A stretch of 64,000 nt of DNA from an uncultured Dehalococcoidales bacterium (GTDB lineage Bacteria; Chloroflexota; Dehalococcoidia; GIF9; UBA5629): NCBI GenBank assembly GCA_964605885.1, contig CAZSED010000002.1:14502-78501 (forward strand), read 5' to 3'. The notes under the pieces were generated by a model. That model was not told the DNA's origin. It did not search any database and saw only the letters and a list, made by a program, of their open reading frames with translations. Numbering within the stretch: the first letter of the stretch is position 1; every line of letters starts with the position of its first letter. Position numbers and translations under genes: made by a program. Positions 9,594 through 28,903 of the stretch are shown in pieces.

Positions 9594-10055
9594 ATGATTG
9601 CAGTAGGTGAACGTGCTCCTGATTTCGTGCTGAAGGACCAGGACGGCAAGGACTTCAAGCTCTCCTCTTTCAAGGGCAAGCGGGTGCTGCTTTCATTCAG
9701 GCCACTGGCCTGGACGCCGGTCTGCACCGACCAGATGTCGGGGCTCGAGCAGAATTTCGACCGCTTCAAGGCTTTGAACACGGTCGCTGTCGGCATAGGT
9801 GTCGATTCATCCGCCTCCAACAAGGCCTGGGCCAAATCCCAGAATATCCAGAAGACCAGGTTGCTGGCGGATTTCTGGCCGCACGGAGAAGTCGCCAGCC
9901 TCTATGGCCTTTTCCGCCAGCAGGACGGCTTCTCCGAGCGCGCCAACGTAGTGGTTGACGAGGACCAGGTCATAGTATTCGCCAAGCTCTACCCCATCCA
10001 GGAGCTGCCCGAGCCGGATGAGATAATCAAGTTCCTGCAAGGCCGGGAAAAATAA
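9594..10055 (+). CDS. bcp: Peroxiredoxin (Bcp/AhpC-TSA family thiol peroxidase)
   Basis: PLAWTPVCT peroxidatic-Cys motif; 153 aa; GGAGG RBS. Confidence 0.8.
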   Translation: MIAVGERAPDFVLKDQDGKDFKLSSFKGKRVLLSFRPLAWTPVCTDQMSGLEQNFDRFKALNTVAVGIGVDSSASNKAWAKSQNIQKTRLLADFWPHGEVASLYGLFRQQDGFSERANVVVDEDQVIVFAKLYPIQELPEPDEIIKFLQGREK

Positions 10056-20766: not shown

Positions 20767-21311
20767 TCAGCCCTCGGGCACGGCGGGGCCGGCCCGCCGC
20801 TTAATCCGCATGCCGAACAGGAAGCGCGTCACGTTCGTCTGCTTAACCACGAACTGGTACAGTAGCAATATTATTGCGAACGATATAGCTATTATCAGAA
20901 AATACGTGGCAGGCGCCGGGATGTCCCACTGGATGACATAGAATCCGACGCCGACGATGACCGTTTGATGCATGACATAGAAAGGCAGCACCGCTCGTTG
21001 GCATAAGACAGGAAACGGTTGGAAAAAGAAAGAAATTTCCTGGCCATGCCCAGAAAGGCCACCATCCAGAAACAGCACAGCTAGACAGCGAAAAACTCCA
21101 TGTCGCCCACCAGGTTTTTCTCCGCACCGAGCATCGGCATCTGCCACAGGTCGGCAAAGTCATTAAACAGCTGGACCGTGAAGTAATGCTGGCTGTTTTT
21201 CAGGTGCCAGGGCCAGTAGACGAAGAACATTCCGCAGTGGAAGACGAATACCACCAGCATCGTGACAACCCGCACCCAGTCCAGGTCAAAGCGTCTTCCG
21301 TGCCTGTCCAC
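20767..21311 (-). pseudogene. Frameshifted and truncated acyltransferase-3/DUF1624-family membrane acyltransferase remnant
   Basis: One frame gives RFDLDWVRVVTMLVVFVFH (acyltransferase N-terminal motif), a second gives LPFYVMHQTVIVGVGFYV, and a third overlaps both. The whole is only about 180 codons, whereas typical family members are about 350. Confidence 0.45.
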
Positions 21312-21401
21312 AGCCGGGTATTATACATAAAAAGCGCTGCGGTATTGAAGGGCCGTTGTATAATTATCTGGCTTAAGTGTAATAAAAAGGTGGAGGCTGC
21401 T

Positions 21402-22826
21402 ATGAAAAACATTATTCGGCACGGGCATCTGGCTCTCCTTGTCTTGCTCATCCTGGCCTGTTCAATTCCTGCCTGCGCGGGCGCAGCACCGCAAACCATC
21501 AGCCTGCAGGAGGCGCAGCAGATCGCCTTTGATGCCGCGGTCTACGGCTTCCCGCTGGTCGTGATGGACCTCACCCGGCAGGTCATGACGGCGGTCCCCG
21601 CGCCCAGTCAGCTCGGATCACCGGCCAACCAGTTCGGCAACAAGAGGGTGTTCCCGGATGCAACCTTCACCAACGTGGTGAACCCCAATGCCGATACGCT
21701 ATATTCGTCGGCCTGGATCGACACCGCTAAAGAGCCCATCATCCTCTCGGTGCCGGATACCCACGGCCGCTACTACCTGATGCCCATGTTCAACTGCTGG
21801 ACGGACTGCTTTGCCTCGCCCGGCTCGCGCACCACCGGCACCGGCGCCGGCAGCTTTGCCATCACCGGCCCGGGCTGGAGCGGCAAGTTGCCTGACGGCC
21901 TGGCCGAGATGAAGTCTTCCACCCGCTGGGTCTGGATTGTCGGCCGCATCGCCTGTACGGGGCAGGCCGACTACGATAACGTCTGGAAGCTTCAGGACCA
22001 GCTCAAGCTGACGCCGCTCTCCGCCTGGGGCACCAGCTACGTGCCGCCGGCCAGCGTGCCGGTCGATCCCAACGTCAACGCTAAGGTGGCTCCGCTCGCC
22101 CAGTTGCTGGCCATGGATGCAGCCGGCTTTTTCAACAATGCCTGCTCGTTGATGGTTGAAAACCCTCCCTATGCAGCGGATGCCCCCATACTGGCCCTCA
22201 TGGCGAAGATAGGCATCAAGCCCGGGGCCGACTACAAGTCGTACTTTGCCGGGCTGGATGATGGCCTTAAGTCGGCCATTCAGGCCGGCTATCAGTCCGC
22301 CCTGGCCCAGATTCCTGCGTCGGATATGGGGACTCCCAAGAACGGGTGGCAGCTCACTTACGCCACCGGCAACTACGGCACGAACTATGCGGTGAGGGCT
22401 GCCATAGCCTACCGTGGATTGGGCGCCAATCTTGTTGACGATGCTTTCTATGCCTCAGCTTTAACCACCGGCGACGGCGCAAAGTTGTCCAGCGACAACA
22501 AGTATGTGCTCCATTTCGGCAAGGATGAGGTACCGCCAGTCAGCGGCTTCTGGTCGCTCTCCATGTACAACGACAAGATTATGTTCGTGGCCAATCCCAT
22601 CAACAGGTACAGCCTGGGCTCGTTGAGCGACCCGCCGCTGGTCAAGAACCCCGACGGTTCGCTTGACATCTACATACAGCGCGATGCTCCTGATTCTGCC
22701 GTGACGCCCAACTGGCTGCCCGCCCCGGCCAGCGGCAACTTCCAGATGACGCTGCGCCTGTACTGGCCGCAGCAGCCGGTGCTGGACAAGAAGTGGATAC
22801 CGCCGGCGGTGCAGCTGGTTAAATAG
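21402..22826 (+). CDS. Secreted DUF1254-DUF1214 fusion protein
   Basis: PNADTLYSSAWIDT...EPIILSVPDTHGRYYLMPMF (DUF1254) and FWSLSMYN...NPINRYSLGS...NWLP (DUF1214); signal peptide; RBS AAGGTGGAGG. Confidence 0.7.
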   Translation: MKNIIRHGHLALLVLLILACSIPACAGAAPQTISLQEAQQIAFDAAVYGFPLVVMDLTRQVMTAVPAPSQLGSPANQFGNKRVFPDATFTNVVNPNADTLYSSAWIDTAKEPIILSVPDTHGRYYLMPMFNCWTDCFASPGSRTTGTGAGSFAITGPGWSGKLPDGLAEMKSSTRWVWIVGRIACTGQADYDNVWKLQDQLKLTPLSAWGTSYVPPASVPVDPNVNAKVAPLAQLLAMDAAGFFNNACSLMVENPPYAADAPILALMAKIGIKPGADYKSYFAGLDDGLKSAIQAGYQSALAQIPASDMGTPKNGWQLTYATGNYGTNYAVRAAIAYRGLGANLVDDAFYASALTTGDGAKLSSDNKYVLHFGKDEVPPVSGFWSLSMYNDKIMFVANPINRYSLGSLSDPPLVKNPDGSLDIYIQRDAPDSAVTPNWLPAPASGNFQMTLRLYWPQQPVLDKKWIPPAVQLVK

Positions 22827-24330: not shown

Positions 24331-24540
24331 ATTTGTTCATCCTTCCAATTCAGCATTATAAAGTAGTATTAAATGCTTCGCAAAATTTCTTATTCAACCA
24401 ACGGGTCATAAATATTGTACCGGATGGCTCTCCTTCGCCGCATGGTTGATTAATTATAATATGTAAAGATCGCGCAACGTTTAACTTACTTGACCGAACG
24501 TTCGCGGTATGCTACACCTAAATTAGGGCGTTTAAGGGAG

Positions 24541-25140
24541 GTGATTAATATAAAAACTATTTATAAGGTGCTCATAGCGGCGGTGATAGCCGTGGTGGCT
24601 GGTGGCGCCATCGGCTTTTTCACCGTCAACCCCATTGCTAAGGCTGTAACCAGTGCGAGCAACGCTACAAGCGGACCATGGTCTGTCAACTATGCATATG
24701 GCAGCGCCGCGGCAAACCCGTATGTCAAGGCATGGGTCGCCGAGACAGGGCTTTTCGCGGTGACAATTAGCACATACTTTGACGCCTACACCGATGACAA
24801 CGGACAACCGATCACAGGCGGCTGCGACTATGTGATACAGGGCCCGGCGCCTACGGCACGATACTGGAATATCACTGTCTACAACCAGGATGGTTTCCTG
24901 ATACAAAACGACCAGAACCGCTGGTCATTCAGCTCCACTGACATCAAGTTCGAGCCTGACGGCAGTTTCAAAATATATCTATCGAGAACGGCGAAGCAGG
25001 GAAACTGGCTGCCGACCGGCAACGCTAAGACGCTGAACGTGTACTTTCGCCTGCATAACGCCGGACCTGATTACCTGAGCGCCAATACATTAAAGTCGGC
25101 GGGACTGCCGCATATTACCAAGGAGGGCTGCCAGCAATGA
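24541..25140 (+). CDS. Membrane-anchored stand-alone DUF1214 domain protein
   Basis: WSFSSTDIKFEPDGSFKIYL...GNWLPTGN DUF1214 signature and an N-terminal TM anchor. The start is ambiguous: an in-frame GTG at 24541 overlaps the GGGAGGTGA RBS, and the track begins at TTG 24490. Confidence 0.5.
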   Translation: MINIKTIYKVLIAAVIAVVAGGAIGFFTVNPIAKAVTSASNATSGPWSVNYAYGSAAANPYVKAWVAETGLFAVTISTYFDAYTDDNGQPITGGCDYVIQGPAPTARYWNITVYNQDGFLIQNDQNRWSFSSTDIKFEPDGSFKIYLSRTAKQGNWLPTGNAKTLNVYFRLHNAGPDYLSANTLKSAGLPHITKEGCQQ

Positions 25141-25670
25141 AAAAGTGGATACCATGGATAGGATGGACGCTCCTGGCCGTCATCGTGGTGGCCGTCATCG
25201 TGAACCTGGTCGTGGCGCTCAGCATTCCAACGGTCATTATGGGAGTAACACTTAACCAGAAGTTCAACTACCCCAGCAACCAGTGGATTTTCGAGCCGCC
25301 GATCTCAGATAATAGCACCGACGTAATCAGGCCGGCTCCTGATGATCTTTACTCAATCCTGGTTTACGACGTTAGCCAGCACCCGCTGCGCGTGACCGCC
25401 GTAACGTCTCCAAACTGGGCTATCTCCGGTATTGCCATCAATACAGATAATTTCTTTAACATCACCGATCTGCAGGCAAAGACGAACCCGGTGGAGATTG
25501 TCCTGATATCAAAGGGACAGACATACAAGGACACAACAGGGAAGGCAGTAGTCATCGAGTCACCTAGCGACAAGGGCATACTTATGATCAGCGCTGTCAC
25601 CCCTAATCAGGCAGCTTTGCCAGGCCTTGTGGAGCAGCAAAAAAAATCCACCGCAGAGTTGGTAAAGTAA
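25137..25670 (+). CDS. Membrane-anchored stand-alone DUF1254 domain protein
   Basis: IRPAPDDLYSILVYDVSQHPLRVTAV DUF1254 signature; its start overlaps the stop of the DUF1214 gene. Confidence 0.55.
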   Translation: MKKWIPWIGWTLLAVIVVAVIVNLVVALSIPTVIMGVTLNQKFNYPSNQWIFEPPISDNSTDVIRPAPDDLYSILVYDVSQHPLRVTAVTSPNWAISGIAINTDNFFNITDLQAKTNPVEIVLISKGQTYKDTTGKAVVIESPSDKGILMISAVTPNQAALPGLVEQQKKSTAELVK

Positions 25671-26137: not shown

Positions 26138-26284
26138 CAAGCGTGTTTGAGACATCCTGTATACGCAATCCCTGCGCAATAATGACCCCTTCGGGTCACT
26201 GATGTTATCCGTTACGGTTCTATCGCCATAGTAAAAGCCTGCCTATAATGTCCCCGTGTCAAATAATCTCTCACAGGTGATGGC

Positions 26285-26812
26285 ATGAATGCACTCAGGA
26301 ACCTGCACCGCGGACAGAAAGGCATGACCGGCCTTGAAACGGCAATTATCCTCATTTCATTCGTCACCGTTGCGGCCGTATTCGGCTACGCCGTATTAAG
26401 CGCAGGCCTCTTCTCGGCCGAAAGGGGCAAGGAAACCGTCTATAACGCCCTGGATGAGGCAAACAACACCTGCACAGTTTCGGGCTCAGTAGTAGCCACG
26501 AGCGATGACAACATTAACGTAAGAACCATAAGATTCGCGCTCAGGCCCGTGCCGGCCACCTGGGGCGGCGTCACTTCTGCCGTCCTCAGCCTTACGACCA
26601 GGACAGACTATATCAACAATGTGCGGATTTCAGGTTTCCAAGATGATGTAATCATCATTGACTTGACCGACCTTGGCCCCGGCGGTCCGCTCAGCGAGAA
26701 CCTGACTGCAAATGACACCTTCACCCTGCAGGTCAAGCCGTCCAAAGGGGCAAGCATCACCATCAGCAGGCAACTGCCCCCAGCCTTTTACCCGGTGATG
26801 GACCTGCGCTAA
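26285..26812 (+). CDS. Archaellin-like protein (archaeal flagellin N-terminal domain with class III signal peptide)
   Basis: RGQKG|MTGLETAIILISFVTVAAVFGYAVLSAGLF...ERGKET closely parallels archaellin N-termini such as ...KG|LAGLDTAIILIAFIIVASVLAYVAINMGLF...KAKTT; 175 aa; AGGTGA RBS. Confidence 0.6.
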   Translation: MNALRNLHRGQKGMTGLETAIILISFVTVAAVFGYAVLSAGLFSAERGKETVYNALDEANNTCTVSGSVVATSDDNINVRTIRFALRPVPATWGGVTSAVLSLTTRTDYINNVRISGFQDDVIIIDLTDLGPGGPLSENLTANDTFTLQVKPSKGASITISRQLPPAFYPVMDLR

Positions 26813-26916: not shown

Positions 26917-26953
26917 TGGTGGCAGCGACTGGGATTGAACCAGTGACCAAGGG
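26917..26953 (-). repeat. Direct repeat of the 3' 37 nt of tRNA-Met (att-like partial tRNA copy)
   Basis: TGGTGGCAGCGACTGGGATTGAACCAGTGACCAAGGG is identical to 28181..28217, which is the tRNA 3' half including CCA. Confidence 0.85.
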
Positions 26954-27045
26954 GCGTTACATCCTGTATATGGGGTATTCCATTACGATGTTTACTGATG
27001 TATAATGCTTTTGTTTGCGTTTAAATGGCTTCCTGCCTAAATTGA

Positions 27046-28152
27046 TTGAGGGGGTTGAGTTGGTTTATGAAGAAGGCGCCCAGCAAGCGAAAAAAGACTC
27101 TCATACGACAAAAATATCAAGACTCCTTTGCTGATACACTGAAGAAAATTCCCTTAAACAAATTTACCGTTGAGGCCGCACTCGAAGTTATTCCTGCCAG
27201 TATCAGTAATGCTGTTTCACTTGTAGCTGATGAAACTATCGGTGTTGCCACTGGTGTAATTGCATACCATACCCTTGACTGGATGATAAGTACGTTTACC
27301 CATGTTTATGAAACGGGTGAAGCGCGCCTGTCTACCATATTTGGTGGAACTATACCAGACGCCACATATAATAGTGTTTCCGAATTTTGGGCTAAAGTTG
27401 AACAGCATGGTTTGTCTCACGGTGCACTCATAGAGATTACCGGACTGCTGTCACCATATGGACCGTTGACACCATCACATCCCATGTCTAGGCCAGGTTA
27501 CTCAATTGGTGGCTGGAAAAAAATGGGTGATTTAAAAGCAGATAGCACGGAAGAATACGATAATATGGACGCATTAATATATGGTGATCGTGTTATCCGC
27601 CTTTCTAAACCAAGATATAATACATACTATGCAGGGTTGTATGATGTCTATTACGGCTTGGCAAATGTTGCTATTCCACTTTATTTAGATACCCGGCATA
27701 CGCGTCACTTTTACCAATGGGGGCTGCCTGAACTATGGAAATTGCCTTTAGTTGGCGGAAAAATCGTTACATTAAAAGGTCGTTTACGGAAAATCTCGAA
27801 CTACTATTCCCAATTAAAAAAAGAAGTGCCGTCCAAATATCGAATGTTGCCTTCATATGGTTTGGAGGTTTTTGAGATAACTTATATGCATGAATCAGAC
27901 GGTATTACTCATATATCTGCCTCTATTGGCTGGGATGAAGAAAATCAGGAAAGAATGATGACCAATTATTTTAATATACAAGACAGACAAGAATTTTCTG
28001 TGTCCGAGCACCTGCTAGAAAAAACCAGAAAACAGAAAACCAATTTGCTGCTCTTCAATTATGATGATGTATCCTGTTTGAGTAAAGAGTGGAAACACAA
28101 ACTACCTAAATATAATGAACTACTTCAACCATGGTTAAGCGGTACAAAATAA
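27046..28152 (+). CDS. AT-rich orphan protein of unknown function (368 aa), cargo of the tRNA-flanked mini-island
   Basis: Hand-counted 60-bp samples are about 40% GC, against about 65% in neighbouring genes; no recognisable domain; lies exactly between the tRNA and its partial direct repeat. Confidence 0.55.
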   Translation: MRGLSWFMKKAPSKRKKTLIRQKYQDSFADTLKKIPLNKFTVEAALEVIPASISNAVSLVADETIGVATGVIAYHTLDWMISTFTHVYETGEARLSTIFGGTIPDATYNSVSEFWAKVEQHGLSHGALIEITGLLSPYGPLTPSHPMSRPGYSIGGWKKMGDLKADSTEEYDNMDALIYGDRVIRLSKPRYNTYYAGLYDVYYGLANVAIPLYLDTRHTRHFYQWGLPELWKLPLVGGKIVTLKGRLRKISNYYSQLKKEVPSKYRMLPSYGLEVFEITYMHESDGITHISASIGWDEENQERMMTNYFNIQDRQEFSVSEHLLEKTRKQKTNLLLFNYDDVSCLSKEWKHKLPKYNELLQPWLSGTK

Positions 28153-28180
28153 ATCTTTTGTTCTGGCACACTTAAAAATA

Positions 28181-28255
28181 TGGTGGCAGCGACTGGGATT
28201 GAACCAGTGACCAAGGGCTTATGAGTCCCCTGCTCTACCGCTGAGCTACGCTGCC
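28181..28255 (-). tRNA. tRNA-Met, anticodon CAT (a lysidine Ile2-type cannot be excluded), with CCA encoded
   Basis: The reverse complement folds into a canonical cloverleaf: GGCAGCG-TA-GCTC-AGCGGTA-GAGC-A-GGGGA-CTCATAA-GCCCT-TGGTC-ACTGG-TTCAATC-CCAGT-CGCTGCC-A-CCA. Confidence 0.85.
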
Positions 28256-28515: not shown

Positions 28516-28645
28516 TACAGCCTCCCCAATCGATGCTATAAGGGATTATAGCACTGCCACGCTACCGCCCTCACCCTGCCCTCTCCCTAAAGGGCGAGGG
28601 TATTTATTTTTATAAGAGGGGCTGGCGCCCCTCTTAAACGCCTGT

Positions 28646-28694: not shown

Positions 28695-28903
28695 GCAATG
28701 ACATGTAAATATAAGAGGAGCTGACGCCCCTCTTAAACACTCCCAAGCCGTTCTGATTTATCTTCTATGTCCAAATCGCACCACGCGAGAACGCCACGCT
28801 TGGATGAGGCTGCTTTGACATGCTATTATTACTGGAGTAAAATATCCGGCAGTTTAATACTTATGCTCATGTGCGCATAAGTAGATAAGGATAGGTCAAG
28901 ACC

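Follow-up and report, generated by a model that had tools for sequence, protein, structure and literature searches.

A short orphan archaellin without the metal-binding loop, encoded away from motor genes in a Dehalococcoidia bacterium

Archaella have been described in bacteria of the phylum Chloroflexota. Archaellum genes were reported in the SAR202 group in 2023 (PMC10444878). In a study from 2025, 3,780 Chloroflexota genomes were examined and 243 had the arl machinery, those of Dehalococcoidia included (PMC12488501). In the latter work, the structure of the Litorilinea aerophila filament was solved and swimming was shown; the archaella of the phylum were inferred to have been transferred from Methanotecta-like Euryarchaeota (PMC12488501). 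For the processing of ArlB, Chloroflexota outside SAR202 were reported to use a PilD of the bacterial type whose gene does not lie in the arl locus, and many members of the phylum also encode Tad or T4a pili (PMC12488501).

The window examined here, that is, the whole stretch of 64,000 nucleotides that was analysed, contains one archaellin gene. Its other genes include two [NiFe]-hydrogenase sets and those for Hyp maturation proteins, PAS-GGDEF and PAS-HD-GYP proteins, redox enzymes and many DUF proteins. The archaellin reading frame is intact: it opens with an ATG and encodes 175 amino acids plus a stop codon. The N-terminal sequence quoted in an earlier note on this DNA, MNALRNLHRGQKG followed by MTGLETAIILISFVTVAAVFGYAVLSAGLFSAERGKET, matches it exactly. 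The coordinates of the gene and of the features in and around it are collected in Table 1.

Table 1. Features of the archaellin gene, its product and its immediate surroundings (positions in the window)
Feature	Position	Strand	Basis or remark
Archaellin (ArlB-like) gene, orphan short-form paralog	26285..26812	+	ORF; PF01917; PDB and fold matches
Shine-Dalgarno-like AGGTGA	26275..26280	+	4 nt 5' of the ATG, read from sequence
Perfect TATAAT hexamer	26244..26249	+	35 nt 5' of the ATG, read from sequence
GC-rich hairpin TGACCC-CTTC-GGGTCA	26183..26198	+	3' of the upstream DUF1801 gene
Class III-type signal peptide, residues 1-13 (MNALRNLHRGQKG)	26285..26323	+	Predicted cleavage G13/M14
N-terminal hydrophobic assembly helix, residues 14-60	26324..26464	+	AF2 model, ArlB identity, dN/dS
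Trimmed beta-sandwich globular domain, residues 61-175	26465..26809	+	Alignments, loop comparison, 9 predicted strands
Left repeat, att-like copy of the 3' half of tRNA-Met; mini-island boundary	26917..26953	.	Perfect 37-nt direct repeat with 28181-28217

Is the product truly an archaellin? Profile and structure searches agree that it is. The Pfam family PF01917 ("Archaebacterial flagellin") matched the protein with E = 4.8e-15 and 56.7 bits, well above its cutoff of 29.5 bits, and the alignment of residues 13–162 covered the full model (positions 1–162 of 162). The only other Pfam family listed at E <= 10 was DUF7263, a non-significant match, and NCBIfam returned only sub-threshold matches to N-terminal domains (TIGR02537, 13.1 vs. 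20 bits). When a profile built from 49 homologs was compared with the PDB, its best match was the 183-residue chain 9i5h, over the full length of that chain (E = 7e-42); the same sequence, that of the L. aerophila bacterial archaellum, is also deposited as 9SIE and 9SII. An AF2 model of moderate confidence (pLDDT 78 overall and below 50 at residues 91–97) places a helix at residues 16–60 (pLDDT 85–90), followed by nine strands. With this model as the query, the best 17 Foldseek matches in the PDB were all archaellins (TM 0.56–0.60), with the L. aerophila filament at the top (E = 3e-11); the archaeal "flagellar-like type IV pilus" 8fk7 appeared at rank 18 (E = 2.5e-3). The earlier note's description of an archaellin-type protein with a class III-type signal peptide is thus borne out by the Pfam match, the PDB profile match and the fold matches.

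A bacterial type IVa or Tad (Flp) pilin was considered as another identity for the protein and was rejected. Such pilins resemble the window protein in two respects: a prepilin peptidase removes their short, positively charged leader, and the core of the filament consists of their hydrophobic N-terminal helices. They differ in the globular domain, which in the window protein is the archaellin beta-sandwich. Bacterial pilin profiles (Flp, N-methyl) gave no match in Pfam at E <= 10, and bacterial pilins were absent from the best 50 Foldseek matches of the model. The earlier note would have abandoned its assignment for a better-scoring bacterial pilin; neither the profile searches nor the fold searches produced a competing model of that kind.

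The predicted cleavage site is in register with that of a structurally defined archaellin, as M14 falls opposite the first residue of mature ArlB from L. aerophila (cryo-EM start I29). Both G13 and M14 are invariant in the 49 homologs. With a short, basic leader that ends in glycine and precedes a hydrophobic helix, the protein has, as judged from its sequence, the attributes of a class III signal peptide. The L. aerophila ArlB (9SIE/9SII/9I5H; PMC12488501), a bacterial archaellin from Chloroflexota like the window protein, shares with it the class III signal peptide cut after G, the "T-x-LETAIILIAF" helix and the C-terminal beta-sandwich. The two are about 32% identical. The L. aerophila protein is longer, however (183 vs. 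162 residues when mature), and its gene heads an arl operon, whereas the window gene is encoded alone.

Signals for expression were sought in the adjacent DNA. A scan for consensus promoters and terminators around the archaellin gene found neither a full sigma-70-type promoter nor a relevant terminator. The TATAAT hexamer might weakly suggest a -10 element, although one with no recognisable -35 partner. The hairpin downstream of the DUF1801 gene has a folding energy of -12.7 kcal/mol (z = -2.4), which was equalled by 3 of 200 shuffled sequences. Because no T-tract follows it, we only tentatively regard this hairpin as the end of the upstream transcription unit.

Several lines of homology place the host among the Dehalococcoidia (Chloroflexota). 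A homolog search with the archaellin returned 1,956 matches, of which the best 120 all carry PF01917; among the matches listed, every homolog with a named organism came from a "Dehalococcoidia bacterium" or a "Chloroflexi bacterium". In the GTDB representative genomes, the best 80 loci all belonged to Dehalococcoidia/Chloroflexota MAGs, with the exception of three contigs. Other genes of the window were 90% and 81% identical to those of the Dehalococcoidia MAGs fen_1075 and MFD03726.bin.2.168. Taken together, the homolog names, the GTDB loci and the identities of the other window genes show that the host is a Dehalococcoidia bacterium, and the bacterial origin of the DNA that the earlier note had proposed is upheld by all three. 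The three exceptional contigs (L034, L046 and L081) stem from MAGs labelled Bacteroidales, Acidobacteriaceae and Terracidiphilus, and their archaellins are 41–51% identical to the window protein. Their archaellin or arl loci lie on short contigs or at contig ends; most likely, they are mis-binned Dehalococcoidia contigs rather than the products of further transfers.

The gene is not an unexplained oddity that crosses domains, as the named homologs are all from Dehalococcoidia or Chloroflexi and the functional, acquired archaella of the phylum have been published (PMC10444878; PMC12488501). Given these published archaella, an archaellin in a bacterium is not in itself new; it belongs to a category already known, and the window gene is an extra, trimmed copy within a known family.

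How does this copy compare with the archaellins of its own lineage? The canonical Dehalococcoidia cluster comprises che genes, two arlB genes, three small genes and the genes for ArlH (KaiC-like), ArlI (T2SSE) and ArlJ (T2SSF). Homologs encoded in such clusters are about 201–206 amino acids long and 55–59% identical to the window protein. Representative cluster-embedded ArlBs (the P0005/P0011 pair in loci L010/L173 and P0008 in L008; 201–204 amino acids), which come from the same lineage, are encoded directly upstream of arlH/I/J together with che genes, and they keep the metal-binding acidic residues. Over the 47 N-terminal residues of the mature chain, they are identical to the window protein at 39–42 positions, and a C-terminal "QLPPA..VMDL" motif is common to all. 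The window copy differs from them in two internal deletions, in a leader of 13 rather than 17 amino acids and in standing alone. In these Dehalococcoidia clusters (L173, 11611–14037; L008, 16762–19168), two conserved genes lie directly 3' of arlJ. They encode a 214-residue protein without a Pfam match and a 589-residue protein with IPT/TIG and Ig-like domains, and a PAS-HD-GYP gene follows. Possibly, the two proteins serve the archaellum of this lineage in particular, as accessory components or as anchors in the envelope.

The closest relatives of the window protein are P0002 (65% identity), P0003, P0004 and P0010, which have 177–184 amino acids and are encoded away from motor genes where their context is available. 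In the GTDB representative genomes, the best match is a relative at 65% identity. The short clade is rare and consists of five proteins with mature lengths of 162–164 residues. It was monophyletic in 164 of 200 neighbor-joining bootstraps (82%), and its members have two indels in common; the window protein is the longest branch within it. The sister group of the clade varied, and it was always another paralog group from the same Dehalococcoidia/Chloroflexota MAGs. This nesting among paralogs of the same bacteria, combined with the monophyly and the two common indels, shows that duplication and trimming gave rise to the window gene within the radiation of Dehalococcoidia archaellins, and hence in a bacterial lineage.

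The trimming is localized. In the alignment, the first ~60 residues are nearly invariant, and the short forms lack first ~8 amino acids and then a loop of 14–18 amino acids; in the window protein, the smaller gap falls after residue 87, and the missing 14–18-residue metal-binding loop would lie between D121 and V122. In L. aerophila ArlB, the metal-coordinating positions are D121, D127, E131 and E134 (PMC12488501). We compared 122 mature archaellins from the fetched loci in an alignment with the L. aerophila sequence. All four metal positions lie in the loop that is absent from five of five short-clade proteins, and the acidic pair is retained in nearly all cluster-embedded copies. By this comparison, the window protein lacks the metal-binding site, a feature that is conserved in euryarchaeal and bacterial ArlBs but by which the family is not formally defined. 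In addition, the window protein has I in place of W115, a residue that hardly varies among family members.

The metal site has been reported to be important for the fold of archaellins and for the stability of the filament (PMC6500986; PMC12488501); in Methanococcus, it maintains the globular fold, and chelators make the filaments fall apart (PMC6500986). For this reason, a subunit without the site may not fit the normal archaellum lattice. The residues at the metal positions are degenerate in another orphan clade, and loss of the site seems to recur in paralogs encoded outside arl clusters. Orphan clades in which the loop is kept and its acidic residues are replaced (GGAG, GSAA, DAEA, NSEL) were seen at L031, L037, L038, L040, L041 and L042. 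The first archaellin copies in L024, L026 and L030 likewise keep the loop with the metal-coordinating residues replaced.

We then asked how selection has acted on the gene. Six assemblies, drawn from different samples, show no difference in the window gene or its flanks; dN/dS was therefore computed between species, there being no polymorphism within the population. Relative to its relatives, the gene has a dN/dS of ~0.2 overall, 0.04–0.07 in the N-terminal ~65 codons and 0.3–0.4 in the globular domain, and the values between cluster-embedded copies are 0.23–0.32; all of these ratios are rough, as dS exceeds 1. Gene conversion was examined as a cause of the N-terminal identity and rejected, because the synonymous sites in this part are saturated (pS 0.69–0.75). 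The N-terminal conservation therefore reflects constraint at the level of the protein, and the gene is under purifying selection.

Motor genes were not found in the window: a tblastn search of the 64 kb with the ArlH, ArlI, ArlJ and accessory proteins of a related cluster returned nothing. Likewise, there was no prepilin peptidase, Tad or T4P component among the Pfam-annotated genes of the window. Both results agree with the earlier note, which had listed no ArlH/I/J, prepilin peptidase or T4P genes here. We looked for the motor in metagenome contigs. A scan based on ArlI alignment, which covered 600 stretches, listed 80 loci, none of them from Ga0212121, Ga0209610 or Ga0172364, the three JGI samples with the window gene. 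A search with ArlJ led to a protein (P0138) that is 78% identical to the query and has the same source signature as the window proteins. The contigs that encode it, from JGI 3300025136, SRR5214703, SRR5214704, ERZ27245614 and 3300010319, carry a complete che-arlB-arlB-...-arlH-arlI-arlJ cluster. The first three of these samples hold both the exact P0138 and the window gene, and ERZ27245614 belongs to the same ENA accession series as ERZ27247965, in which the window gene is found.

The composition of the cluster contig was compared with that of the window. Copies of the contig from different samples are clonal, as is the window, and differ by 1 mismatch in 17 kb. The housekeeping flank of the contig contains dnaE; its GC content is 0.55–0.56, and its tetranucleotide correlation with the window is r = 0.93–0.94. 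As controls, chunks of the window gave 0.91–0.97 when compared with the remainder, and the flanks of other species gave at most 0.91. The ArlB of this cluster is identical to the window protein at 42 of the 47 N-terminal residues of the mature chain, as against 39 of 47 for the closest relative overall. Because the two occur in the same samples and match in composition, we infer that the cluster with P0138 quite likely belongs to the same genome as the window, a link drawn from co-occurrence and composition rather than from a shared contig or bin.

Such an arrangement is seen in related genomes. Five MAGs (UBA1162, MFD04492.bin.2.15, MFD03726.bin.1.148, H111_81 and UBA6808) each have one arl cluster and one to four dispersed archaellin loci. 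Of the best 80 GTDB loci, 49 lack a motor gene within reach; full 10-kb flanks on both sides are available for 19 of these 49. In other words, archaellated Dehalococcoidia have additional archaellin genes dispersed outside the motor operon. Orphan archaellins with larger globular parts (323–469 residues when mature) were also noticed in related Dehalococcoidia MAGs, away from arl motor genes (near position 10,000 of loci L013, L015, L016, L018, L039, L047 and L048). On the complete chromosome OY970123.1 (2.46 Mb), archaellin genes occur at five or more separate loci, none of them next to arlHIJ within 10 kb. In the open-access literature, we found no report of dispersed archaellin paralogs of such variable size (162–469 residues when mature) in Dehalococcoidia.

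What is new here is an orphan archaellin that has the shortest form among those compared and is devoid of the metal-binding loop. With the loop lost and the assembly helix preserved, the short clade is a natural experiment on whether assembly can do without the metal site. The locus is also relevant to the way in which an archaeal nanomachine, once acquired horizontally by bacteria, diversifies.

Some archaellin paralogs of archaea have genes that lie apart from the arl operon; in H. marismortui, for instance, a different replicon carries such a gene. Among the possible functions of the window gene, we lean towards that of a divergent extra arlB copy whose product is a minor or alternative subunit, assembled in trans by the ArlH/I/J motor. 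The 175-residue preprotein would be inserted in the membrane, and a class III (PilD/PibD-type) signal peptidase would remove the basic leader of 13 residues after G13. The mature protein of 162 residues would be polymerised, via its almost unchanged hydrophobic N-terminal helix, by ArlH/I/J encoded elsewhere in the genome, and would thereby join the same filament as the two major archaellins of 201 residues. The extreme constraint on the helix argues for such co-assembly in the filament core of the major ArlBs. The missing metal site and the replacement of W115 speak against this reading. On the outside of the filament, the trimmed globular domain without the metal loop would present a different, metal-independent surface, while the packing of the core would be kept. 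The subunit could be a minor or positional one, or it could be an alternative used under particular conditions, analogous to archaeal ecoparalogs. The use of several non-redundant archaellins is common in archaea, with one motor serving several such paralogs in Methanococcus (FlaB3), Methanocaldococcus villosus (ArlB1/B2) and Haloarcula marismortui (ArlA2/ArlB) (PMC8821640; PMC6528647). The hosts in these cases are archaea, whereas that of the window paralog is a bacterium.

Could the short archaellin instead build a filament of its own? In that event, it would be the subunit of a separate, non-rotating structure, such as an adhesive or sensory pilus, made by ArlHIJ or by bacterial Tad/T4a machinery with PilD. 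We consider this unlikely. The lack of linkage to motor genes would be in keeping with it, as would the loss of the loop that stabilises archaellum subunits; the orphan paralogs of related genomes, with their very different globular domains (162–469 residues), suggest functional diversification, and 8fk7 is present among the fold matches. Moreover, Tad/T4a pili are encoded by many Chloroflexota, most of which use a bacterial-type PilD (PMC12488501). However, the helix barely differs from the one in the major ArlBs and is very strongly constrained, as co-assembly predicts. All of the best 17 fold matches are true archaellins, no Flp or N-methyl pilin profile matched, and the window has no Tad or T4P genes near the archaellin gene.

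A broader proposal, to which we assign a still smaller chance, is that Dehalococcoidia turned the archaellin fold into a dispersed multigene family of surface-filament subunits, with several loci in each genome and the metal site missing from some members, and that the short clade builds a distinct filament or a cap, hook-like or adhesive-tip segment. If true, this would amount to a bacterial functional diversification of an archaeal machine, so far undescribed.

It is very doubtful that the window gene is a leftover paralog without a current role, unexpressed or unassembled, in a genome that may have lost its motor. The long branch of the protein within the short clade, the loss of the metal loop and of W115, the slightly atypical GC3 of the gene (0.68 vs. 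0.72–0.87 for core genes), the failure to find a consensus promoter or terminator around it and the absence of motor genes from the 64-kb window would all be in keeping with a relic. Nevertheless, the reading frame is intact and has a good Shine-Dalgarno sequence, and the dN/dS of the gene is similar to that of the cluster-embedded copies, with far lower values in the helix. Four other members of the short clade have been retained in other lineages, and an arl cluster co-occurs in the same samples.

The archaellin gene has a mini-insertion as its downstream neighbour. The sole tRNA gene of the window, tRNA-Met(CAT), lies at 28181–28255 on the minus strand, and the 37-nt direct repeats bracket an insert of 1,264 bp with a single ORF of 361 amino acids (27067–28152; GC 0.40, GC3 0.35), the product of which matched no family in Pfam or PHROGs. 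The mini-insertion (26917–28217) has no recognisable integrase and could represent an integrative element of unusually small size, or what is left of one. The earlier note had placed the archaellin gene directly next to this island and suggested that it may be part of a horizontally acquired patch. The gene is not island cargo: its last position, 26812, lies 105 bp away from the left repeat, on the outer side, and its GC3 also differs from that of the island ORF. That it is a recent, independent archaeal gene carried by the tRNA-Met island is extremely improbable, for although it adjoins an insertion of low GC next to a tRNA gene, and the stretch of the window around both (23–29 kb) has reduced GC as a whole, it lies outside the perfect repeats at 26917 and 28181, its codon composition is far from that of the island ORF, and its product nests inside the Dehalococcoidia radiation, being 55–65% identical to the bacterial copies vs. 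13–24% to solved archaeal archaellins.

Two further features of the neighbourhood were noted. A palindromic element of 29 nt, TATAAGAGGGGCTGGCGCCCCTCTTAAAC, occurs in two copies that are 93% identical (28611–28639 and 28710–28738), between the tRNA-Met gene and the gene for an ArsR/HTH_5 regulator that precedes the Mvh-type hydrogenase operon; these palindromes could be operators or terminators. Within the 5 kb upstream of the archaellin gene, there are three DUF1254/DUF1214 gene sets (21186–22826, 24490–25140 and 25137–25670). The locus of the closest relative (L012) has a DUF1254 gene 5 kb from its short archaellin, 81% identical to the first set of the window; the two loci thus have a DUF1254 neighbour in common, in a different gene order.
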